From: Escherichia coli
Lineage (GTDB): Bacteria; Pseudomonadota; Gammaproteobacteria; Enterobacterales; Enterobacteriaceae
DNA length: 64,000 nucleotides
NCBI RefSeq assembly: GCF_024223415.1
Contig: NZ_CP100500.1
Reading direction: 5' to 3' (one strand)
Shown: positions 33,436 to 44,432 of the stretch, one piece after another
Numbering within the stretch: position 1 is the first letter of the stretch
Layout of the letters: each line of letters starts with the position of its first letter
The notes under the pieces: model-generated
Database searches by the model: none
What the model saw: the letters and a program-made list of their open reading frames with translations, nothing else
Told to the model about the DNA's origin: nothing
Position numbers and translations under genes: made by a program

Positions 33436-34599
33436 GTGGAACAGATTAATTCAAATAAAAAACATTCTAACAGAAGAAAATACTTTTCTTTATTGGCGAT
33501 AGTTTTATTTATTGCGTTTTCAGGTGCTTATGCCTATTGGTCAATGGAATTAGAAGACATGATTAGTACAGATGACGCCTATGTCACGGGGAATGCAGAT
33601 CCAATTTCTGCACAAGTCTCAGGTAGTGTCACTGTAGTTAATCATAAAGATACGAACTACGTTCGACAGGGTGACATTTTAGTTTCACTGGATAAAACTG
33701 ATGCCACTATCGCACTCAATAAAGCTAAAAATAATCTGGCAAATATTGTTCGGCAAACGAATAAACTGTACTTACAGGATAAACAATACAGTGCCGAAGT
33801 CGCTTCAGCACGTATTCAGTATCAACAATCTTTAGAAGATTATAACCGTCGTGTGCCTTTAGCGAAGCAGGGGGTTATTTCAAAAGAAACGCTGGAGCAT
33901 ACCAAAGATACGTTAATAAGTAGCAAAGCGGCATTGAATGCCGCTATCCAGGCTTATAAAGCGAATAAAGCTTTAGTAATGAACACACCATTAAACCGTC
34001 AGCCACAAGTCGTTGAAGCTGCGGATGCAACCAAAGAAGCCTGGTTGGCGCTTAAACGTACGGATATTAAGAGTCCGGTTACCGGCTATATTGCCCAGAG
34101 AAGTGTTCAGGTCGGCGAAACAGTGAGCCCCGGACAATCGTTAATGGCTGTCGTACCGGCACGTCAAATGTGGGTTAATGCCAACTTTAAAGAAACACAA
34201 CTCACGGATGTACGGATTGGTCAATCGGTCAATATTATCAGCGATCTTTATGGTGAAAATGTTGTGTTTCATGGCCGGGTGACAGGGATCAATATGGGAA
34301 CCGGCAATGCGTTCTCCTTATTACCTGCACAAAATGCGACAGGGAACTGGATCAAAATCGTTCAGCGTGTACCGGTTGAAGTTTCTCTTGATCCAAAAGA
34401 ACTCATGGAACACCCCTTGCGCATTGGTTTATCGATGACTGCAACTATTGATATGAAGGACGAAGACATTGCTGAGATGCCTGATCTGGCTTCAACCGTG
34501 ACCTCCATGCCTGCTTATACCAGTAAGGCTTTAGTTATCGATACCAGTCCGATAGAAAAAGAAATTAGCAACATTATTTCGCATAATGGACAACTTTAA
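33436..34599 (+). CDS. emrK: Multidrug efflux membrane fusion protein EmrK
   Basis: 387-aa ORF with an N-terminal TM anchor and HlyD-like periplasmic adaptor region. Confidence 0.9.
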   Translation: MEQINSNKKHSNRRKYFSLLAIVLFIAFSGAYAYWSMELEDMISTDDAYVTGNADPISAQVSGSVTVVNHKDTNYVRQGDILVSLDKTDATIALNKAKNNLANIVRQTNKLYLQDKQYSAEVASARIQYQQSLEDYNRRVPLAKQGVISKETLEHTKDTLISSKAALNAAIQAYKANKALVMNTPLNRQPQVVEAADATKEAWLALKRTDIKSPVTGYIAQRSVQVGETVSPGQSLMAVVPARQMWVNANFKETQLTDVRIGQSVNIISDLYGENVVFHGRVTGINMGTGNAFSLLPAQNATGNWIKIVQRVPVEVSLDPKELMEHPLRIGLSMTATIDMKDEDIAEMPDLASTVTSMPAYTSKALVIDTSPIEKEISNIISHNGQL

Positions 34600-36137
34600 T
34601 GGCAATCACTAAATCAACTCCGGCACCATTAACCGGTGGGACGTTATGGTGCGTCACTATTGCATTGTCATTAGCGACGTTTATGCAAATGTTGGATTCC
34701 ACTATTTCTAACGTCGCAATACCGACAATATCTGGCTTTCTGGGAGCATCAACAGACGAAGGCACCTGGGTTATCACCTCGTTTGGCGTAGCAAATGCCA
34801 TTGCGATCCCTGTTACCGGCAGGCTGGCACAAAGAATAGGCGAATTAAGGTTATTTTTACTTTCAGTCACTTTTTTTTCGCTGTCTTCCTTAATGTGTAG
34901 TTTATCGACCAATCTTGATGTGCTGATATTTTTTAGAGTCGTTCAGGGATTAATGGCGGGGCCGTTAATTCCACTGTCACAGAGTTTATTATTAAGGAAT
35001 TATCCACCAGAAAAAAGAACATTTGCTCTGGCATTATGGTCTATGACCGTGATTATCGCTCCGATATGTGGGCCGATATTAGGCGGTTATATTTGTGATA
35101 ACTTTAGCTGGGGTTGGATATTTTTAATCAATGTCCCTATGGGGATTATCGTCCTGACATTATGCTTAACCTTACTTAAAGGAAGAGAAACTGAGACTTC
35201 ACCGGTCAAAATGAATCTACCAGGACTGACCCTGTTAGTGCTCGGTGTTGGTGGCTTGCAAATTATGCTTGATAAAGGGCGCGATCTGGATTGGTTCAAC
35301 TCGAGTACAATAATAATATTAACAGTAGTATCAGTTATTTCTCTGATCTCTTTAGTCATTTGGGAGTCGACCTCAGAGAACCCGATTCTTGATCTCAGTT
35401 TGTTTAAGTCCCGTAACTTCACCATTGGTATTGTGAGTATCACATGCGCGTATTTATTTTACTCTGGAGCGATAGTCCTTATGCCGCAGTTACTCCAGGA
35501 AACAATGGGGTATAATGCGATTTGGGCTGGGCTTGCTTATGCGCCCATCGGCATCATGCCGCTATTAATATCACCTTTGATAGGACGTTATGGCAACAAA
35601 ATTGATATGCGGTTGTTGGTGACATTTAGTTTTTTAATGTATGCGGTTTGCTATTACTGGCGTTCTGTGACATTTATGCCAACGATTGATTTTACAGGCA
35701 TCATTTTGCCACAGTTTTTTCAGGGATTCGCCGTCGCCTGTTTCTTTTTACCCTTAACAACGATTTCGTTTTCAGGTTTGCCAGATAATAAATTTGCCAA
35801 TGCCTCGAGTATGAGTAATTTTTTTCGTACCTTGTCAGGATCAGTTGGTACGTCGTTGACAATGACGCTGTGGGGACGCCGAGAATCATTACACCATAGT
35901 CAGTTGACAGCAACCATCGATCAATTTAACCCCGTGTTTAATTCATCGTCACAAATTATGGATAAATACTATGGTTCGCTTTCAGGGGTTCTTAATGAAA
36001 TTAATAATGAAATAACTCAGCAGTCACTTTCAATTTCTGCAAATGAGATTTTCCGTATGGCGGCTATTGCTTTTATCTTACTTACGGTATTGGTTTGGTT
36101 TGCGAAACCGCCGTTTACAGCGAAAGGTGTTGGGTGA
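34599..36137 (+). CDS. emrY: MFS (DHA2) multidrug efflux pump EmrY
   Basis: 512-aa 14-TM MFS ORF whose start overlaps the emrK stop. Confidence 0.9.
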   Translation: MAITKSTPAPLTGGTLWCVTIALSLATFMQMLDSTISNVAIPTISGFLGASTDEGTWVITSFGVANAIAIPVTGRLAQRIGELRLFLLSVTFFSLSSLMCSLSTNLDVLIFFRVVQGLMAGPLIPLSQSLLLRNYPPEKRTFALALWSMTVIIAPICGPILGGYICDNFSWGWIFLINVPMGIIVLTLCLTLLKGRETETSPVKMNLPGLTLLVLGVGGLQIMLDKGRDLDWFNSSTIIILTVVSVISLISLVIWESTSENPILDLSLFKSRNFTIGIVSITCAYLFYSGAIVLMPQLLQETMGYNAIWAGLAYAPIGIMPLLISPLIGRYGNKIDMRLLVTFSFLMYAVCYYWRSVTFMPTIDFTGIILPQFFQGFAVACFFLPLTTISFSGLPDNKFANASSMSNFFRTLSGSVGTSLTMTLWGRRESLHHSQLTATIDQFNPVFNSSSQIMDKYYGSLSGVLNEINNEITQQSLSISANEIFRMAAIAFILLTVLVWFAKPPFTAKGVG

Positions 36138-36245
36138 TGGTAAAAAGAGAGAGCTATAGCAGGTAAGACGGTAGAATCTTAAGCCTGCGCCATCGGCAGC
36201 ATCGCTCACCCAGGGAAAGGATGGCGATGCTGCATTGAAAATTAA

Positions 36246-37574
36246 TTAGCGGCCTTTTGCCAGATATTGCTCCATCTCTTCTTCCGGCACCATTCCACCT
36301 CCCGTCGCCCACACCAGATGAGTGGCATTACGCAGTTGTTCTGCGCTGAAACCGTGCATCTGTTGGTAACTTACTGATGCGCACACGCGCTGAGGCCCGG
36401 CCATACCCGCCAGTGCCGAAGGTTCAAGACGAATACCTTCTTCCTGCGTCAGCCAGCCAAGCATGTCATACATGGTTGGATCGCTAAGGGTATAGAAGCC
36501 ATCCAGCAGACGCTCCATTGCCCGCCCGACAAAGCCTGATGCGCGACCAACAGCAAGGCCATCCGCTGCGGTAAGGTTGTCGATACCAATATCCTGAACA
36601 GAGATCTGATCGTGTAATCCTGTATGGACGCCTAACAGCATACAAGGGGAGTGCGTTGGTTCGGCAAAAAAACAGTGAACATGATCGCCAAACGCCAGTT
36701 TAAGTCCGAATGCGACGCCACCAGGACCACCGCCAACACCACACGGCAGATAGACAAACAGAGGGTTATCAGCATCGACGATACGACCTTGCTCGGCAAA
36801 TTGCGCTTTAAGACGCTGGCCAGCGACGGAATACCCAAGGAACAACGTGCGGGAATTTTCGTCATCAATAAAGAAACAGTTCGGGTCAGACTGCGCTGCT
36901 TTACGTCCTTCCTCGACGGCAACACCATAATCTTGCTCATATTCCACGACCGTAACGCCATGGCTGCGCAGTTTCGCTTTTTTCCATGCCCGGGCATCAG
37001 CAGACATATGCACTGTCACCTTAAAGCCAATGCGGGCGCTCATAATGCCGATTGATAACCCCAGATTTCCGGTTGAGCCCACAGCAATGCTGTATTGGCT
37101 AAAGAACTGTTTAAACTCCGGAGAAAGCAGTTTGCTGTAGTCATCATCAAGCGTCAGCAACCCCGCTTCCAGAGCCAGTTTTTCTGCGTGTGCCAGGACT
37201 TCATAAATCCCGCCGCGTGCTTTTATGGAGCCGGAAATGGGCAAATGGCTATCTTTTTTCAGTAACAGTTGCCCGCTGATCGGTTGTTGATATTCCTTTT
37301 CCAGCCGTTTTTGCATAGCCGGAATGGCAACCAGTTCTGATTCAATAATCCCCCCAGTGGCAGCAGTTTCAGGAAATGCTTTTGCCAGATAGGGTGCAAA
37401 ACGGGATAAGCGCGCATGGGCGTCCTGAACATCCTGTTCGGTCAGGCCAACATAAGGTAAACCTTCAGCCAATGAGGTCGTGCCAGGATTAAACCAGGTG
37501 GTTTCTTTAAGAGCAACCAGATCCTTTACCAACGGATACTGGGCGATGAGCGAGTTCATTTTAGCGTTTTCCAT
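36246..37574 (-). CDS. dsdA: D-serine ammonia-lyase (D-serine dehydratase)
   Basis: 442-aa ORF starting [31 protein letters not shown], with the PLP-lysine region SGSIKARGG. Confidence 0.95.
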
Positions 37575-37591
37575 AGTACGTCTCTTTGCGC

Positions 37592-37810
37592 TTAGATGAT
37601 AAATGACAGCAGGAATGTGCCCGCCAGAGCGACGACTGAAGCGATAAATGTCGCTGTCGTATAGTATTTAAATGTTTCATTGAGCGTAGCGCCGCAATAT
37701 TGCTTCACCAGCCAGAAAAGCGAGTCCGTAACGATCGTGCAGCCAATCGCGCCTGAACCGATAGCAATCGTAATAATTTCCGGGCTGATGTCGGGATACA
37801 GCGGCAGCAC
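37592..37810 (-). pseudogene. dsdX: 3' remnant of D-serine permease gene dsdX (C-terminal ~72 codons only)
   Basis: Short ORF encoding the GntP-family C-terminal TM segments ([56 protein letters not shown]) directly upstream of dsdA; no N-terminal coding sequence follows, only the cscR upstream region. Confidence 0.75.
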
Positions 37811-38040
37811 AATGATCCATATTTATATTTTCTTCTCCAGGTTGGCGATGCCAGTTGGCATGTTTTACTTACTTGCCTATATGGTTACTCGTTGGCGAGA
37901 ACAGAGGCGGAATTGGGGACAATTGTCCGGGAATTATTGTTATTTTTTATTGTATTGCCGTGTCAGGTGATAGGGCGTTGGATCTCGCCAGTGACGTCTG
38001 TTTCTGCTACAGTGCCCGTTTTACGGCAAACGGCTTGGAT

Positions 38041-39036
38041 ATGGCTTCATTAAAGGATGTCGCACGCCTGGCGGGAGTGTCGATGATGACAGTCTCCCGG
38101 GTGATGCATAATGCAGAATCTGTGCGTCCTGCAACGCGTGACCGCGTATTGCAGGCAATCCAGACCCTGAATTATGTTCCTGATCTTTCCGCCCGTAAGA
38201 TGCGCGCTCAAGGACGTAAGCCGTCGACTCTCGCCGTGCTGGCGCAGGACACTGCTACCACTCCTTTCTCTGTTGATATTCTGCTTGCCATTGAGCAAAC
38301 CGCCAGCGAGTTCGGCTGGAATAGTTTTTTAATCAATATTTTTTCTGAAGATGACGCTGCCCGCGCGGCACGTCAGCTGCTTGCTCACCGTCCGGATGGC
38401 ATTATCTATACTACAATGGGGCTGCGACATATCACGCTGCCTGAGTCTCTGTATGGTGAAAATATTGTATTGGCGAACTGTGTGGCGGATGACCCAGCGT
38501 TACCCAGTTATATCCCTGATGATTACACTGCACAATATGAATCAACACAGCATTTGCTCGCGGCGGGCTATCGTCAACCGTTATGCTTCTGGCTACCGGA
38601 AAGTGCGTTGGCAACAGGGTATCGTCGGCAGGGATTTGAGCAGGCCTGGCGTGATGCTGGACGAGATCTGGCTGAGGTGAAACAATTTCACATGGCAACA
38701 GGTGATGATCACTACACCGATCTCGCAAGTTTACTCAATGACCACTTCAAATCGGGCAAACCAGATTTTGATGTTCTGATATGTGGTAACGATCGCGCAG
38801 CCTTTGTGGCTTATCAGGTTCTCCTGGCGAAGGGGGTACGTATCCCGCAGGATGTCGCCGTAATGGGCTTTGATAATCTGGTTGGCGTCGGGCATCTGTT
38901 TTTACCGCCGCTGACCACAATTCAGCTTCCACATGACATTATCGGGCGGGAAGCTGCATTGCATATTATTGAAGGTCGTGAAGGGGGAAGTGTGACGCGG
39001 ATCCCTTGCCCGCTGTTGATCCGTTGTTCCACCTGA
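38041..39036 (+). CDS. cscR: LacI-family sucrose operon repressor CscR
   Basis: ORF 37855..39036; a 331-aa product from MASLKDVARLAGVSMMTVSRVMHN has a LacI-type HTH followed by a periplasmic-binding-protein-like domain. Confidence 0.85.
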   Translation: MASLKDVARLAGVSMMTVSRVMHNAESVRPATRDRVLQAIQTLNYVPDLSARKMRAQGRKPSTLAVLAQDTATTPFSVDILLAIEQTASEFGWNSFLINIFSEDDAARAARQLLAHRPDGIIYTTMGLRHITLPESLYGENIVLANCVADDPALPSYIPDDYTAQYESTQHLLAAGYRQPLCFWLPESALATGYRRQGFEQAWRDAGRDLAEVKQFHMATGDDHYTDLASLLNDHFKSGKPDFDVLICGNDRAAFVAYQVLLAKGVRIPQDVAVMGFDNLVGVGHLFLPPLTTIQLPHDIIGREAALHIIEGREGGSVTRIPCPLLIRCST

Positions 39037-39043
39037 TATTATG

Positions 39044-40486
39044 CTAACCCAGTTGCCAGAGTGCTCCATGTTGCACCACAGCCACTCCGTGGGAGGCATA
39101 AAGCGACAGTTCCCGTTCTTCTGGCTGCGGATAGATTCGACTACTCATCACCGCTTCCCCGTCGTTAATAAATACTTCCACGGATGATGTATCGATAAAT
39201 ATCCTTAGGGCGAGCGTCTCACCCTGCGGGAGGAGAATACTACGGTAGCCGTCTAAATTCTCGTGTGGGTAATACCGCCACAAAACAAGTCGCTCAGATT
39301 GGTTATCAATATACAGCCGCATTCCTGTGCCGAGCTGTAATCCGTAATGTTCGGCATCACTGTTCTTCAGCGCCCACTGCAACTGAATCTCAACTGCTTG
39401 CGCGTTTTCCTGCAAAACATATTTATTGCTGATTGTGCGGGGAGAGATAGATTGATGCTGCTGGCGTAACGACTCAGCTTCGTGTACCGGGCGTTGTAGA
39501 AGTTTGCCATTGCTCTCTGATAGCTCGCGCGCCAGCGTCATGCAGCCTGCCCAGCCTTCACGTTTTGAGGGCATTGGCGATTCCCACATATCCATCCAGC
39601 CGATAACAATACGCCGACCATCCTTCGCTACAAAGCTTTGTGGTGCATAAAAGTCATGCCCGTTATCAAGTTCAGTAAAATGCCCGGATTGTGCAAAAAG
39701 TCGTCCTGGCGACCACATTTCGGGTATTACGCCACTTTGAAAGCGATTTCGGTAACTGTATCCCTCGGCCTTCATTCCCTGCGGGGAAAACATCAGATAA
39801 TGCTGATCGCCAAGGCTGAAAAAGTCCGGACATTCCCACATATAGCTTTCACCCGCATCAGCGTGGGCCAGTACGCGATCGAAAGTCCATTCACGTAATG
39901 AACTGCCGCGATAAAGCAGGATCTGCCCCGTGTTGCCTGGGTCTTTCGCCCCGACTACCATCCACCATGAGTCGGCTTCACGCCACACTTTAGGATCGCG
40001 GAAGTGCATGATTCCTTCTGGTGGAGTGAGGATCACACCCTGTTTCTCGAAATGAATACCATCCCGACTGGTAGCCAGACATTGTACTTCGCGAATTGCA
40101 TCGTCATTACCTGCACCATCGAGCCAGACGTGTCCGGTGTAGATAAGTGAGAGGACACCATTGTCATCGACAGCACTACCTGAAAAACACCCGTCTTTGT
40201 CATTCTCGTCTCCTGGCGCTAGCGCAATAGGCTCATGCTGCCAGTGGATCATATCGTCGCTGGTGGCATGTCCCCAGTGCATTGGCCCCCAGTGTTCGCT
40301 CATCGGGTGATGTTGATAAAACGCGTGATAACGATTGTTAAACCAGATCAGGCCGTTTGGATCGTTCATCCACCCGGCAGGAGGCGCGAGGTGAAAATGG
40401 GGATAGAAAGTGTTACCTCGGCGCTCGTGAAGTTTTGCTAGTGCGTTTTGCGCCGCATGCAATCGAGATTGCGTCATTTTTATCAT
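39044..40486 (-). CDS. cscA: Sucrose-6-phosphate hydrolase / invertase CscA (GH32)
   Basis: 480-aa ORF with GH32 motifs (WMNDPNG, FRDP, EC); the true start may be Met-4 (MTQSRLHAAQ) at 40477. Confidence 0.9.
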   Translation of the reverse strand: MIKMTQSRLHAAQNALAKLHERRGNTFYPHFHLAPPAGWMNDPNGLIWFNNRYHAFYQHHPMSEHWGPMHWGHATSDDMIHWQHEPIALAPGDENDKDGCFSGSAVDDNGVLSLIYTGHVWLDGAGNDDAIREVQCLATSRDGIHFEKQGVILTPPEGIMHFRDPKVWREADSWWMVVGAKDPGNTGQILLYRGSSLREWTFDRVLAHADAGESYMWECPDFFSLGDQHYLMFSPQGMKAEGYSYRNRFQSGVIPEMWSPGRLFAQSGHFTELDNGHDFYAPQSFVAKDGRRIVIGWMDMWESPMPSKREGWAGCMTLARELSESNGKLLQRPVHEAESLRQQHQSISPRTISNKYVLQENAQAVEIQLQWALKNSDAEHYGLQLGTGMRLYIDNQSERLVLWRYYPHENLDGYRSILLPQGETLALRIFIDTSSVEVFINDGEAVMSSRIYPQPEERELSLYASHGVAVVQHGALWQLG

Positions 40487-40510
40487 CCTGGTTAAGCAAA
40501 TTTGGTGAAT

Positions 40511-40524
40511 TGTTAACGTTAACT
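40511..40524. promoter_or_regulatory. Candidate CscR operator (copy 1) in the cscA-cscK divergent promoter region
   Basis: TGTTAACGTTAACT, with palindromic core GTTAACGTTAAC; an identical copy lies 64 nt away. Confidence 0.45.
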
Positions 40525-40574
40525 TTAATAAAAATAAAGTCCCTTACTTTCATAAATGCGATGAATATCACAAA

Positions 40575-40588
40575 TGTTAACGTTAACT
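40575..40588. promoter_or_regulatory. Candidate CscR operator (copy 2)
   Basis: Second exact copy of TGTTAACGTTAACT. A CRP-like half-site TGTGATCGAATATGCA follows at about 40598..40613. Confidence 0.45.
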
Positions 40589-40692
40589 ATGACATTTTGT
40601 GATCGAATATGCATGTTTTAGTTAATCCATGACGATTTTGCGAAAAAGAGGTTTATCACTATGCGTAAGTCAGATGAATTTAAGGGAAAAAA

Positions 40693-41607
40693 ATGTCAGC
40701 CAAAGTATGGGTTTTAGGGGATGCGGTAGTAGATCTCTTGCCAGAATCAGACGGGCGCCTACTGCCTTGTCCTGGCGGCGCGCCAGCTAACGTTGCGGTG
40801 GGAATCGCCAGATTAGGCGGAATAAGTGGGTTTATAGGTCGGGTCGGTGATGATCCTTTTGGTGCATTAATGCAAAGAACGCTGCTAACTGAGGGAGTCG
40901 ATATCACGTATCTGAAGCAAGATGAATGGCACCGGACATCCACGGTGCTTGTCGATCTGAACGATCAAGGGGAACGTTCATTTACGTTTATGGTCCGCCC
41001 CAGTGCCGATCTTTTTTTAGAGACGACAGACTTGCCCTGCTGGCGACATGGCGAATGGTTACATCTCTGTTCAATTGCGTTGTCTGCCGAGCCTTCGCGT
41101 ACCAGCGCATTTACTGCGATGACGGCGATCCGGCATGCCGGAGGTTTTGTCAGCTTCGATCCCAATATTCGTGAAGATCTATGGCAAGACGAGCATTTGC
41201 TCCGCTTGTGTTTGCGGCAGGCGCTACAACTGGCGGATGTCGTCAAGCTCTCGGAAGAAGAATGGCGACTTATCAGTGGAAAAACACAGAACGATCGGGA
41301 TATATGCGCCCTGGCAAAAGAGTATGAGATCGCCATGCTGTTGGTGACTAAAGGTGCAGAAGGGGTGGTGGTCTGTTATCGAGGACAAGTTCACCATTTT
41401 GCTGGAATGTCTGTGAATTGTGTTGATAGCACGGGGGCGGGAGATGCGTTCGTTGCCGGGTTACTCACAGGTCTGTCCTCTACGGGATTATCTACAGATG
41501 AGAGAGAAATGCGACGAATTATCGATCTCGCTCAACGTTGCGGAGCGCTTGCAGTAACAGCGAAAGGGGCAATGACAGCGCTGCCATGTCGACAAGAACT
41601 GGAATAG
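40693..41607 (+). CDS. cscK: Fructokinase CscK (PfkB/ribokinase family)
   Basis: 304-aa ORF with PfkB-family motifs (N-terminal GDAVVD, C-terminal DSTGAGDAF). Confidence 0.9.
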   Translation: MSAKVWVLGDAVVDLLPESDGRLLPCPGGAPANVAVGIARLGGISGFIGRVGDDPFGALMQRTLLTEGVDITYLKQDEWHRTSTVLVDLNDQGERSFTFMVRPSADLFLETTDLPCWRHGEWLHLCSIALSAEPSRTSAFTAMTAIRHAGGFVSFDPNIREDLWQDEHLLRLCLRQALQLADVVKLSEEEWRLISGKTQNDRDICALAKEYEIAMLLVTKGAEGVVVCYRGQVHHFAGMSVNCVDSTGAGDAFVAGLLTGLSSTGLSTDEREMRRIIDLAQRCGALAVTAKGAMTALPCRQELE

Positions 41608-41678
41608 TGAGAAGTAAACGGCGAAGTCGCTCTTATCTCTAAATAGGACGTGAATTTTTTAACGACAGGCAGGTAATT

Positions 41679-42926
41679 ATGGCACTGAATATTCCATTCA
41701 GAAATGCGTACTATCGTTTTGCATCCAGTTACTCATTTCTCTTTTTTATTTCCTGGTCGCTGTGGTGGTCGTTATACGCTATTTGGCTGAAAGGACATCT
41801 AGGGTTGACAGGGACGGAATTAGGTACACTTTATTCGGTCAACCAGTTTACCAGCATTCTATTTATGATGTTCTACGGCATCGTTCAGGATAAACTCGGT
41901 CTGAAGAAACCGCTCATCTGGTGTATGAGTTTCATCCTGGTCTTGACCGGACCGTTTATGATTTACGTTTATGAACCGTTACTGCAAAGCAATTTTTCTG
42001 TAGGTCTAATTCTGGGGGCGCTCTTTTTTGGCCTGGGGTATCTGGCGGGATGCGGTTTGCTTGACAGCTTCACCGAAAAAATGGCGCGAAATTTTCATTT
42101 CGAATATGGAACAGCGCGCGCCTGGGGATCTTTTGGCTATGCTATTGGCGCGTTCTTTGCCGGCATATTTTTTAGTATCAGTCCCCATATCAACTTCTGG
42201 TTGGTCTCGCTATTTGGCGCTGTATTTATGATGATCAACATGTGTTTTAAAGATAAGGATCACCAGTGCGTAGCGGCGGATGCGGGAGGGGTAAAAAAAG
42301 AGGATTTTATCGCAGTTTTCAAGGATCGAAACTTCTGGGTTTTCGTCATATTTATTGTTGGGACGTGGTCTTTCTATAACATTTTTGATCAACAACTTTT
42401 TCCTGTTTTTTATGCAGGTTTATTCGAATCACACGATGTAGGAACGCGCCTGTATGGTTATCTCAACTCATTCCAGGTGGTACTCGAAGCGCTGTGCATG
42501 GCGATTATTCCTTTCTTTGTGAATCGGATAGGGCCAAAAAATGCATTACTTATCGGTGTTGTGATTATGGCGTTGCGTATCCTTTCCTGCGCGCTGTTCG
42601 TTAACCCCTGGATTATTTCATTAGTGAAGCTGTTACATGCCATTGAGGTTCCACTTTGTGTCATATCCGTCTTCAAATACAGCGTGGCAAACTTTGATAA
42701 GCGCCTGTCGTCGACGATCTTTCTGATTGGTTTTCAAATTGCCAGTTCGCTTGGGATTGTGCTGCTTTCAACGCCGACTGGGATACTCTTTGACCACGCA
42801 GGCTACCAGACAGTTTTCTTCGCAATTTCGGGTATTGTCTGCCTGATGTTGCTATTTGGCATTTTCTTCCTGAGTAAAAAACGCGAGCAAATAGTTATGG
42901 AAACGCCTGTACCTTCAGCAATATAG
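41679..42926 (+). CDS. cscB: Sucrose:H+ symporter CscB (MFS oligosaccharide:H+ symporter family)
   Basis: 415-aa 12-TM ORF starting MALNIPFRNAYYRFASSYSFLFFISWSLWWSLYAIWL, LacY-like. Confidence 0.9.
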   Translation: MALNIPFRNAYYRFASSYSFLFFISWSLWWSLYAIWLKGHLGLTGTELGTLYSVNQFTSILFMMFYGIVQDKLGLKKPLIWCMSFILVLTGPFMIYVYEPLLQSNFSVGLILGALFFGLGYLAGCGLLDSFTEKMARNFHFEYGTARAWGSFGYAIGAFFAGIFFSISPHINFWLVSLFGAVFMMINMCFKDKDHQCVAADAGGVKKEDFIAVFKDRNFWVFVIFIVGTWSFYNIFDQQLFPVFYAGLFESHDVGTRLYGYLNSFQVVLEALCMAIIPFFVNRIGPKNALLIGVVIMALRILSCALFVNPWIISLVKLLHAIEVPLCVISVFKYSVANFDKRLSSTIFLIGFQIASSLGIVLLSTPTGILFDHAGYQTVFFAISGIVCLMLLFGIFFLSKKREQIVMETPVPSAI

Positions 42927-43349
42927 ACGTAAACTTTTTCCGGTCGTTGTCGATATCTCCATATCCTTCAATCGGAAAATAATAATACTAAAATGCTTAG
43001 CCCTGCTAATAATCACCTATGTTCTGGTACAGTCGCTCAAATGTACTCCGGATACACGGTTCGCTGATTTCCAGGACATTGTCGTCATTCAGCGACCTGT
43101 CCCGTGTATCACGGGCCTGCAAATTCATCAAGGAATGCATTGCGGAGTGAAGTATCGAGTCACGCCGTATTTCGCTATCAGGATTCTGTGTGATGGTTAC
43201 ATCGCCCGGCCCAGGGCTGTTTAGTCATCAGCGCTTTCTGACAGTGCTGAGATTTCAACCTGTTGCAGTAAAAATGAGTAGATATAGGGCAAGTGTGCTG
43301 CCAAACCCATCTTTTATGGGGTGAAGGTAGATTTCGTTTGAAGGGTATC

Positions 43350-43424
43350 TGGTGTCCCCTGCAGGAATCGAACCTGCAATTAGCCCTTAGGAGGGGCTCG
43401 TTATATCCATTTAACTAAGAGGAC
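43350..43424 (-). tRNA. argW: tRNA-Arg (anticodon CCU)
   Basis: Reverse complement reads GTCCTCTTAGTTAAATGGATATAACGAGCCCCTCCTAAGGGCTAATTGCAGGTTCGATTCCTGCAGGGGACACCA, with the anticodon loop CT-CCT-AA; its 3' end faces cscB. Confidence 0.9.
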
Positions 43425-43499
43425 AATGCGGCATGAGTATACCCGCTAATGGACTGCGGGGTAAGTACGCTGCCGCTCGATTGCTTAAACCCTCGCCAT

Positions 43500-44432
43500 T
43501 TATGCCGGGTTTTTATCATTTTTCTTAATGTTTTCCGCACGTTCTGCTTTTTGGCGTGCTTCTGCTTTGCGCTTGTTGCTCATGTCGTTACGGATCTGTG
43601 CATGACTCATTAACGCGAAGATAAAGGTGCCGCCGCAGATGTTCCCCGCTAAAGTAGGTAGTGCGAAGGGCCAGATGAAATCGCTCCAGTGCAGCGTACC
43701 GTTAAACACCAGATAGAGGATTTCTACAGAACCGACAACGATGTGAGTGGTGTCACCCAGGGCAATAAGCCAGGTCATCAATATAATCACCACAATCTTT
43801 GCCGCACCCGCTGCAGGAAACATCCATACCATAGTGGCGATCAGCCAGCCGGAAATGATCGCGTTGGCAAACATCTCGCTGGGGGTGTTCTTCATCACAT
43901 CCATGCCGATTTTGACAAATGCATCGCGAGTTTCTTCATTGAAGATTGGCATATATTCAAATGCCCACGCCGCAATACCTGTCCCGAGAATATTACCCAG
44001 CAGCACGACGCCCCATAACCGCATAAGTAAGCCAACGTTGCTCATTGTCGGTTTTTGCATGACGGGTAGTACCGCAGTCACGGTGTTTTCGGTAAATAAT
44101 TGCTGGCGGGCCATAATGACGATAATAAAACCAAAGGTATAACCGAGATTCTCCAGCAAGAAGCTGCCCGGCACACCTTCCAGTTCGACATGAAATATCC
44201 CTTTTGCCAGTAATGAAGCGCCCATCGACAGACCCGCCGCAATGGCTGACCACAGTAGTGCCATTGCGTCGCGTTCCAGCTCTTTTTCACCATCCTGGCG
44301 GATATGCTCATGAATTGCCATCGCCCGGGAGGGGAGTCGATCTTCATCTATTTCTATTTTTTTGCCACGCTCTTTTTCTTCGCTCTCAACTTCAATTTCG
44401 TCGCTGTGTTGATCAATTTTGTCGTTGTCCAT
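43500..44432 (-). CDS. yfdC: Formate/nitrite transporter-family inner membrane protein YfdC
   Basis: ORF 43500..44549; a 310-aa product from internal Met MDNDKIDQHSDEIE, a polytopic FNT-like membrane protein. Confidence 0.8.
   Translation of the reverse strand: MDNDKIDQHSDEIEVESEEKERGKKIEIDEDRLPSRAMAIHEHIRQDGEKELERDAMALLWSAIAAGLSMGASLLAKGIFHVELEGVPGSFLLENLGYTFGFIIVIMARQQLFTENTVTAVLPVMQKPTMSNVGLLMRLWGVVLLGNILGTGIAAWAFEYMPIFNEETRDAFVKIGMDVMKNTPSEMFANAIISGWLIATMVWMFPAAGAAKIVVIILMTWLIALGDTTHIVVGSVEILYLVFNGTLHWSDFIWPFALPTLAGNICGGTFIFALMSHAQIRNDMSNKRKAEARQKAERAENIKKNDKNPA

Follow-up and report, generated by a model that had tools for sequence, protein, structure and literature searches.

In the csc regulon, CscB imports sucrose together with a proton, CscA, a cytoplasmic GH32 invertase, splits it into glucose and fructose, and CscK phosphorylates the fructose. 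Both promoters of the divergently oriented cscA and cscKB are under the control of CscR, a LacI-type repressor, and of cAMP-CRP, which act via two GTTAACGTTAAC operators. The regulon was reportedly described by Bockmann in 1992 and by Jahreis in 2002, the latter work being said to have already published the csc arrangement beside argW/dsd, as did, reportedly, that of Moritz and Welch in 2006. Where csc takes the place of dsdCX at argW, the result is a textbook metabolic trade-off, sucrose use against D-serine tolerance, which bears on the niche choice of enterohemorrhagic (EHEC) versus uropathogenic (UPEC) strains and on industrial sucrose strains. The arrangement is already known and published: it is treated, along with the loss of D-serine use, in PMC3032704, PMC4366372, PMC7486766, and PMC11251922, and both the E. 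coli W genome paper and the EHEC D-serine papers give it.

Here, we compared a 64-kb stretch of E. coli DNA (the window, i.e., the whole stretch that was analyzed) with these systems. The locus in question is ordinary: in roughly one E. coli in two, part of the D-serine locus has likewise given way to a csc cluster. With high confidence, we explain it jointly as a csc regulon of the EC3132/W/O157 type at argW-dsd that arose by one ancient replacement and is probably weak or silent. The order in the window is dsdA, a 72-codon 3′ remnant of dsdX, cscR, cscA, cscK, cscB, and the tRNA-Arg(CCT) gene argW; according to the list of open reading frames (ORFs), cscKB is divergent from cscA and cscR is convergent with it. 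The features are as follows.

36246–37574, (−) strand: dsdA, D-serine ammonia-lyase, 442 aa, intact (TIGR02035, 810 bits; annotated dsdA in SCU-316)
37592–37810, (−) strand: dsdX 3′ remnant, 72 codons corresponding to DsdX residues 374–445 (NF007395 profile positions 374–445 of 445)
37811–38040, no strand: left spacer and cscR upstream region, exclusive to csc+ genomes
38041–39036, (+) strand: cscR, LacI-family repressor, 331 aa (LacI-family matches; TUM1880 orthologue annotated cscR)
39044–40477, (−) strand: cscA, GH32 invertase, 477 aa (TIGR01322, 475 bits; PDB 7VCO, E = 7e-175)
40478–40692, no strand: divergent cscA/cscKB control region with two palindromes, a CRP-like site, and the rare base 40527
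40693–41607, (+) strand: cscK, PfkB-family fructokinase, 304 aa (NF006957, 505.7 bits against a cut-off of 450; cscK in TUM1880)
41679–42926, (+) strand: cscB, predicted LacY-like sucrose:H+ symporter, 415 aa (TIGR00882, 594 bits)
43021–43224, (−) strand: decayed internal fragment of a DUF4942 gene, ~residues 76–143 of 281
43350–43424, (−) strand: argW, tRNA-Arg(CCT) (ARAGORN and Rfam)

The initial annotation had proposed four intact csc genes, and the profile searches agree, as all four ORFs match Csc families and none contains an internal stop. One gene call was revised: cscR had been drawn as a 393-aa ORF opening with TTG at 37855, which is too long, and the annotated ATG start gives 38041–39036 and 331 aa. 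The CscR protein has the same accession as that of O157:H7 (WP_001301925.1), and its 90% cluster includes the entry “Sucrose operon repressor (Csc operon regulatory protein)” of E. coli W. In CscA, the catalytic motifs NDPNG (38), RDP (160), and EC (215) are in place, while the TIGR00882 match of CscB spans residues 9–399 in the profile search (cut-off 220). The TUM1880 locus, 98% identical to the window, is annotated cscR/A/K/B, with its cscB entered as “cscB: sucrose MFS transporter.” No frameshifts, stops, or IS elements were found in the csc cluster, scrY and scrA were absent from the ORFs and profile matches of the csc block, and an Rfam scan of the whole window returned two tRNAs and nothing else. 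Judged by these sequence matches, the four ORFs are the csc regulon of non-PTS sucrose catabolism, with transport as the predicted function of CscB.

Breakpoints were determined by BLAST against K-12 and against EC24, a dsdCXA strain without the prophage. Homology with intact dsdX stops at 37809, which sets the left breakpoint at 37809/37810, inside dsdX, and homology with dsdCXA strains restarts at position 43350, precisely where argW has its 3′ end. Given this gap between 37809 and 43350, dsdC and dsdX codons 1–373 are missing, and neither dsdC nor full-length dsdX is present between dsdA and argW in the window. The earlier placement of csc between a 72-codon dsdX remnant and the argW 3′ end, in lieu of dsdC and most of dsdX, is borne out by these coordinates and by the alignment against K-12 and EC24. 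The remnant is annotated as a pseudogene in every csc+ record compared. In K-12, dsdC and dsdX are followed in this interval by CPS-53 genes, among them torI and yfdT, which upholds the assignment to a non-K-12 strain. CPS-53 is not what csc replaced but an independent insertion of the K-12 type at argW, because some strains carry dsdCXA directly beside argW and some csc+ strains carry other elements at the 23-bp argW core. Since the activator gene dsdC is absent, dsdA is not inducible in the window, in agreement with the silent dsdA of csc-bearing EHEC (PMC7486766); an intact dsdA whose activator is gone would allow neither the use nor the detoxification of D-serine. The dsdA of the window differs from that of SCU-316 by Q366P (base 36478).

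At least 80% of positions 36000–44000 aligned in 2,646 of 5,426 complete E. coli genomes, which makes the locus real far beyond chance. An identical 101-bp junction between the dsdX remnant and csc occurs in 2,690 of these genomes, from diverse lineages, and the remaining genomes match only the dsdX half of it. The left spacer is found in 2,691 of the 5,426, with no occurrence elsewhere in the genome; it shows a 12-bp indel polymorphism, of which the window has the short form. In an alignment, six lineages that are 95–99% identical share the same junction sequence. Nucleotide identity of csc to other csc+ strains is 95–99.8%, and csc divergence between lineages is less than or about equal to that of the flanks. 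The identical junction in so many genomes suggests that the block goes back to a single old event and was not inserted recently, and the description of csc as the clearest accessory block of the window does not hold, as about half the species bears it through one shared junction. The event was probably a single ancient replacement in which dsdC and dsdX codons 1–373 were lost and csc DNA was joined to dsdX; on its other side, the csc DNA would have met the remains of a CP4-like island abutting the argW 3′ end. Inheritance or recombination would later have carried the arrangement to about half of E. coli.

At the right boundary, bases 43350–43372 of argW form the 23-bp core that element insertions in other strains duplicate, and matches in prophage- or island-bearing strains end at 43364–43372. 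The cscB-argW spacer holds what appears from its sequence to be the relic of a CP4-like island gene (DUF4942). The fragment was matched by tblastn (51% identity, E = 2e-15; its extension upstream contains a single in-frame stop), by blastn against full-length copies of the gene elsewhere (~73% identity), and by a weak Pfam match (PF13708, in L015); it corresponds to z3622 of EDL933 and is annotated DUF4942 in O157 and TUM1880. A search of the two spacers for an att repeat or other island relics gave the DUF4942 fragment only. Any scenario for this relic and the arrival of csc needs at least two deletions. The tRNA-island origin that had been suggested for the block is thus retained in part: the right boundary and the CP4-like relic fit it, but on the left the block ends at a deletion joint within dsdX, where no att repeat is present.

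A stronger version of this idea, in which argW of this strain recently received an integrase-mediated island whose integrase was later lost, would accommodate novel DNA that begins exactly at the argW 3′ end, a CP4-like gene fragment lying 125 bp from the tRNA, and the elements that the same 23-bp core carries in other strains. However, we consider it extremely improbable. As the initial annotation had also remarked, no integrase survives: none was found within 37592–43424 among ORFs, profile matches, or annotation. The argW 3′-end direct repeat is present in a single copy, with no distal copy in the island even when up to 3 mismatches were allowed, and the best local alignments of the argW 3′ end with the island scored no better than shuffled sequence. 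Further against a recent island, the left boundary falls within dsdX, the junction is identical in 2,690 genomes of diverse lineages, and csc and its flanks diverge together. The GC content of 0.43–0.53 may also speak against it, as it overlaps that of neighboring core genes (0.42–0.53 across csc and 0.41–0.55 in the flanking emrY, dsdA, and yfdC).

The closest complete genome is that of SCU-316 (phylogroup E/ST57), 99.94% identical over the 64 kb. A base-by-base comparison rejected full identity, with 20 substitutions and 12 indels over that length, three of these differences falling in the locus. CscA T170S, P415L, and D420E are common to the window and SCU-316, while N236K (base 39770) and G253E (base 39720) belong to the window's sub-clade; V284I in CscB is the sole difference between the window and six other lineages in that protein. 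The column of CscA residue 253 holds G in 120 of 130 GH32 homologues and V, M, L, A, S, or Q in 9, so that E may be tolerated there too. The exact CscA allele of the window occurs in 6–7 public contigs, and a 61-bp blastn query around codon 253 found G253E in no complete RefSeq genome. A sequencing error or artefact was rejected as the source of G253E, the exact protein being present in several independent assemblies.

In the control region, the 12-bp palindrome GTTAACGTTAAC occurs in two copies (40512–40523 and 40576–40587) that are conserved in six lineages and are, as read from the sequence, the putative CscR operators; a CRP-like site, TGCGATGAATATCACA, which is conserved as well, lies at 40557–40572. 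PMC11251922 attributes the operators and the CRP site to Jahreis 2002. Two bases of the region differ from other csc+ strains. At 40527, the best candidate cscA −10 hexamer is changed from TATAAA to TATTAA, and the 61-mer containing this base is identical in 4 of 2,658 csc+ genomes. This probable −10 placement comes from a secondary description combined with a reading of the sequence, and a scan of the cscA-cscK region with consensus promoters and terminators gave no match.

The initial annotation had taken the cluster to indicate a sucrose-positive lineage. We instead conclude that, in this lineage, standard test conditions would probably show the regulon to be weak or silent, the phenotype being borrowed from the relative SCU-316, from which the window differs by the substitutions and indels given above. 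SCU-316, which is csc+ and scr−, does not grow on M9 with 10 mM sucrose, the basis being given as unknown, and 23 of 29 csc-only isolates grow slowly or very slowly, none being fully Suc+ (PMC11251922); in general, growth of such isolates is slow or absent. Together with CscA G253E and the base at 40527, these phenotypes are the ground for expecting a weak phenotype. Fast growth on sucrose has been attributed to scr rather than csc (PMC11251922). A fully functional locus that marks a sucrose-positive lineage would fit four full-length ORFs with intact catalytic motifs, conserved operators, and a CscR identical to that of O157:H7, given that wild-type EHEC grows on sucrose (PMC7486766). It is nevertheless quite unlikely in view of the SCU-316 result and the lack of any Suc+ csc-only isolate in that study, to which are added a substitution at a conserved glycine and, in what is probably the −10 region of cscA, a rare base.

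The opposite reading, that csc is decaying toward a pseudogene cluster in a small clade, with a mutation that lowers promoter activity and a substitution that harms CscA as the suspected lesions, is somewhat unlikely. It would give a reason for the unexplained Suc− phenotype of SCU-316, and it can point to the TATAAA-to-TATTAA change in 4 of 2,658 genomes, to a G253E that is confined to the window's sub-clade, and to a precedent, as csc decay is known in Shigella (PMC11251922). Yet the cluster is free of frameshifts, stops, and IS elements, the amino acid differences are modest in number, and four other Suc− csc+ isolates come from unrelated lineages, which suggests a general regulatory cause, tight CscR repression at low sucrose. 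G253E was rejected as the cause of the SCU-316 phenotype, because SCU-316 has G253. A narrower proposal, that csc in the ST57-like clade is cryptic via the −10 change shared with SCU-316 plus the sub-clade's G253E, treats both as candidate lesions and is tentative, being more doubtful than general decay. If it were true, specific lesions would explain a published Suc− phenotype of unknown basis, and csc decay would extend to a commensal lineage, as in Shigella. On the preferred reading of an old, probably weak or silent regulon, the csc cluster here adds nothing new, and the island relic and the two candidate lesions are of local interest only; the lesson for annotation is that a sucrose-positive phenotype cannot be read off from the presence of four intact csc genes.

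Compared with known systems, the csc block of the window shares its substrate with the scr regulon (scrKYABR; pUR400/Klebsiella type), and the two are alike in having a LacI-type repressor whose operators are paired palindromes, along with a GH32 hydrolase and a fructokinase (PMC11251922). However, scr works through a PTS enzyme II plus a porin and cleaves sucrose-6-phosphate, whereas csc in the window relies on uptake via a LacY-like symporter. In CP4/P4-like tRNA islands (CP4-57, KpLE2), DUF4942 is the terminal gene of a distal module that comprises DUF932, antirestriction, RadC/JAB, YeeU-CbtA, DUF5983, DUF957, and DUF4942, and the fragment in the window likewise sits beside the argW 3′ end and reads away from the tRNA. 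Unlike those islands, the window keeps only ~68 codons of the gene, is devoid of an integrase, toxin-antitoxin genes, and an att repeat, and has csc beyond the DUF4942 end, which is not the usual cargo position. The dsdCXA locus of K-12 and UPEC CFT073 has dsdA and the last 72 dsdX codons at the same position, ~97.6% identical, but the window is without its dsdC and dsdX codons 1–373. The csc loci of EC3132, W, and O157:H7 EDL933 show the same genes, order, orientation, dsdX truncation point, operators, and position, and the window differs from them at the allele level only; relative to other csc+ strains, the spacer between its cscB and argW is shorter by 18 bp and its cscR upstream stretch by 12 bp.

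The ORF list and tRNA scan of the window place four csc genes between dsdA and argW, with family matches from NCBIfam, as follows:

34599-36137, (+) strand: emrY, 512 aa
36246-37574, (−) strand: dsdA, 442 aa; D-serine ammonia-lyase, 810 bits
37592-37810, (−) strand: dsdX remnant, 72 codons; positions 374-445 of the 445-position DsdX model
38041-39036, (+) strand: cscR, 331 aa; LacI-family regulator
39044-40477, (−) strand: cscA, 477 aa; GH32 "scrB family" hydrolase, 475 bits
40693-41607, (+) strand: cscK, 304 aa; fructokinase, 506 bits against a cut-off of 450
41679-42926, (+) strand: cscB, 415 aa; oligosaccharide/LacY-type MFS transporter, 594 bits
43350-43424, (−) strand: argW, tRNA-Arg(CCT), 75 nt
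43500-44432, (−) strand: yfdC, 310 aa
44726-45481, (+) strand: mlaA, 251 aa

The initial annotation named these genes cscR, cscA, cscK and cscB, and the identification is confirmed because independent lines agree: the family matches, the same gene names annotated in TUM1880 (98% identical across the locus), and a CscR protein that shares its accession with O157:H7 and belongs to a 90% cluster containing the entry [quoted passage not shown] For cscR, a mechanically called TTG start at 37855 was rejected in favor of the annotated ATG at 38041. Upstream of this gene lies a 12-bp insertion/deletion polymorphism (37968-37971), for which the window has the short form, found at ≥99% identity in 611 genomes, and most csc-carrying (csc+) genomes have the long form.

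BLAST comparison with K-12 and with EC24, a prophage-free strain with the order dsdA-dsdX-dsdC-argW-yfdC, revealed homology across 36000-37809 and again from 43350, the exact 3′ end of argW. The intervening 5,540 bases (37810-43349) stand in place of dsdC, dsdX codons 1-373 and the 95-bp dsdC-argW spacer, which bears out the proposed replacement of dsdC and most of dsdX, with the breakpoints now placed at 37809 and 43350. The K-12 map on which that proposal drew is also correct, with CPS-53 genes (torI, yfdT, yfdR and others) following dsdC. However, CPS-53 was rejected as DNA displaced by csc, since it is a separate argW insertion absent from EC24 and is unrelated to the replacement.

Among 5,426 complete E. 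coli genomes, 2,646 cover at least 80% of 36000-44000, and a 101-bp probe spanning the junction of truncated dsdX with csc DNA was fully covered in 2,690, the remaining genomes matching the dsdX half only. Six lineages sharing 95-99% identity with the window have the same junction sequence, and csc divergence between lineages is about that of the flanks, or lower. Taken together, these observations point to one old replacement event, later inherited or spread by homologous recombination; a recent strain-specific island insertion is argued against by both the 2,690-genome junction and the csc/flank divergence. The arrangement is already described and very common, and the copy in the window is real and correctly identified. 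In E. coli W, csc is flanked by dsdX on one side and the argW variable region on the other, and the strain lost D-serine use in consequence (PMC3032704). The same dsdX truncation was described in EHEC by Connolly et al. and O'Boyle et al., with reference to Jahreis 2002 and Moritz & Welch 2006 (PMC4366372, PMC7486766). Stephens and co-workers found csc in 35-37% of isolates; phylogroups D and E carried it universally, and B1 nearly so (PMC11251922).

Functions were assigned from what is established about these families and from the cited papers: sucrose would be imported with a proton by CscB and hydrolyzed in the cytoplasm by CscA, the fructose would be phosphorylated by CscK, and the divergent promoters would be controlled by CscR and cAMP-CRP. 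Between cscA and cscK we found two GTTAACGTTAAC palindromes (40512-40523 and 40576-40587) and a CRP-like site, TGCGATGAATATCACA (40557-40572), all conserved across lineages in the alignment; they match the operators and CRP site attributed to Jahreis 2002 in a later paper (PMC11251922). Carriage of csc does not indicate a sucrose-positive lineage, contrary to what had been predicted for the window, because its closest complete genome, SCU-316 (phylogroup E/ST57; 99.94% identical across the whole window), has csc without scr and did not grow on M9 with 10 mM sucrose, "basis unknown," and because none of the csc-only isolates in that study was fully Suc+, with 23/29 showing slow or very slow growth (PMC11251922). 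The prediction is therefore not supported for this lineage.

Three bases within the locus distinguish the window from SCU-316:

36478: dsdA Q366P
39770: CscA N236K
39720: CscA G253E

Column 253 of CscA is G in 120 of 130 diverse GH32 homologues and never acidic; the other window-specific CscA positions fall in variable columns. G253E and N236K are absent from all 2,662 csc+ complete RefSeq genomes, SCU-316 included, and the window's 61-mer around cscA codon 253 had no exact match in this set (0/2,662). G253E is nevertheless a genuine allele, restricted to a small sub-clade, since the exact window CscA protein is on record in six to seven other public contigs from independent assemblies. A further change, T to A on the (+) strand at 40527, adjoins the cscA-proximal operator and is common to the window and SCU-316; its 61-mer occurs in 4 of 2,658 csc+ complete genomes (SCU-316 plus three others). 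On the cscA-sense strand, the best −10 candidate (a promoter assignment of our own) thereby reads TATTAA instead of TATAAA, and we regard G253E and the 40527 base as candidates for reduced function. Near 40623 there is another lineage-specific base (tagtaaat to tagttaat). In the orphan dsdA, a gene shown in EHEC to be silent without DsdC (PMC4366372, PMC7486766), Q366P is private in the comparison with SCU-316 and six further lineages, and A376T is specific to the window's clade among the lineages compared; relaxed selection on a gene that is silent may account for both.

Most window/SCU-316 indels cluster in homopolymer runs within a low-GC stretch (0.30-0.34) at 45500-47000, suggesting that one of the two assemblies contains errors. 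Here the window has an intact 426-aa ORF (45663-46943, (−) strand) with no NCBIfam match, and the SCU-316 counterpart is annotated as a frameshifted yfdF and a hypothetical pseudogene. Several more homopolymer-length differences from SCU-316 occur at 53028-54843, near the end of a yfc-type fimbrial operon.

The initial annotation also regarded the block as a tRNA-associated island without a surviving integrase. The latter point held, as no integrase was found among the ORFs, NCBIfam matches or annotation of the csc block. Evidence on the former is split: the right boundary coincides exactly with the argW 3′ end, and the cscB-argW spacer (42927-43349) contains a decayed DUF4942 gene fragment (43021-43224, (−) strand; 51% amino-acid identity over residues 76-143 of 281, E = 2e-15), but a search for any repeat of the argW 3′ end found none and the left end falls within dsdX. 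GC content of the block is unremarkable. All csc+ genomes have the fragment in this spacer, and its ORF is z3622 of EDL933, which served O'Boyle et al. as a promoter source, its origin uncommented (PMC7486766); the window's spacer is ~18 bp shorter than, and only 92-94% identical to, that of most strains. The relic may have come with csc or from a different island. In several csc+ strains, among them O157:H7 (a recombinase-bearing element), BEC1 (a YeeU-bearing island) and L014 (a P2-like phage), other elements lie past a short repeat of the argW 3′ end. Because matches to these strains stop at 43364-43372, a 15-23-bp core in the 3′ part of argW (43350-43372) serves as the attachment site core for an active hotspot of integration, which in the window is an empty site. 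In CP4-like islands, full-length E. coli DUF4942 is the last gene of a DUF932, antirestriction, RadC/JAB, YeeU-CbtA, DUF5983, DUF957, DUF4942 module. The window's fragment reads away from argW, as expected of such an island at this tRNA, whereas csc is found past the DUF4942 end and not where island cargo usually sits.
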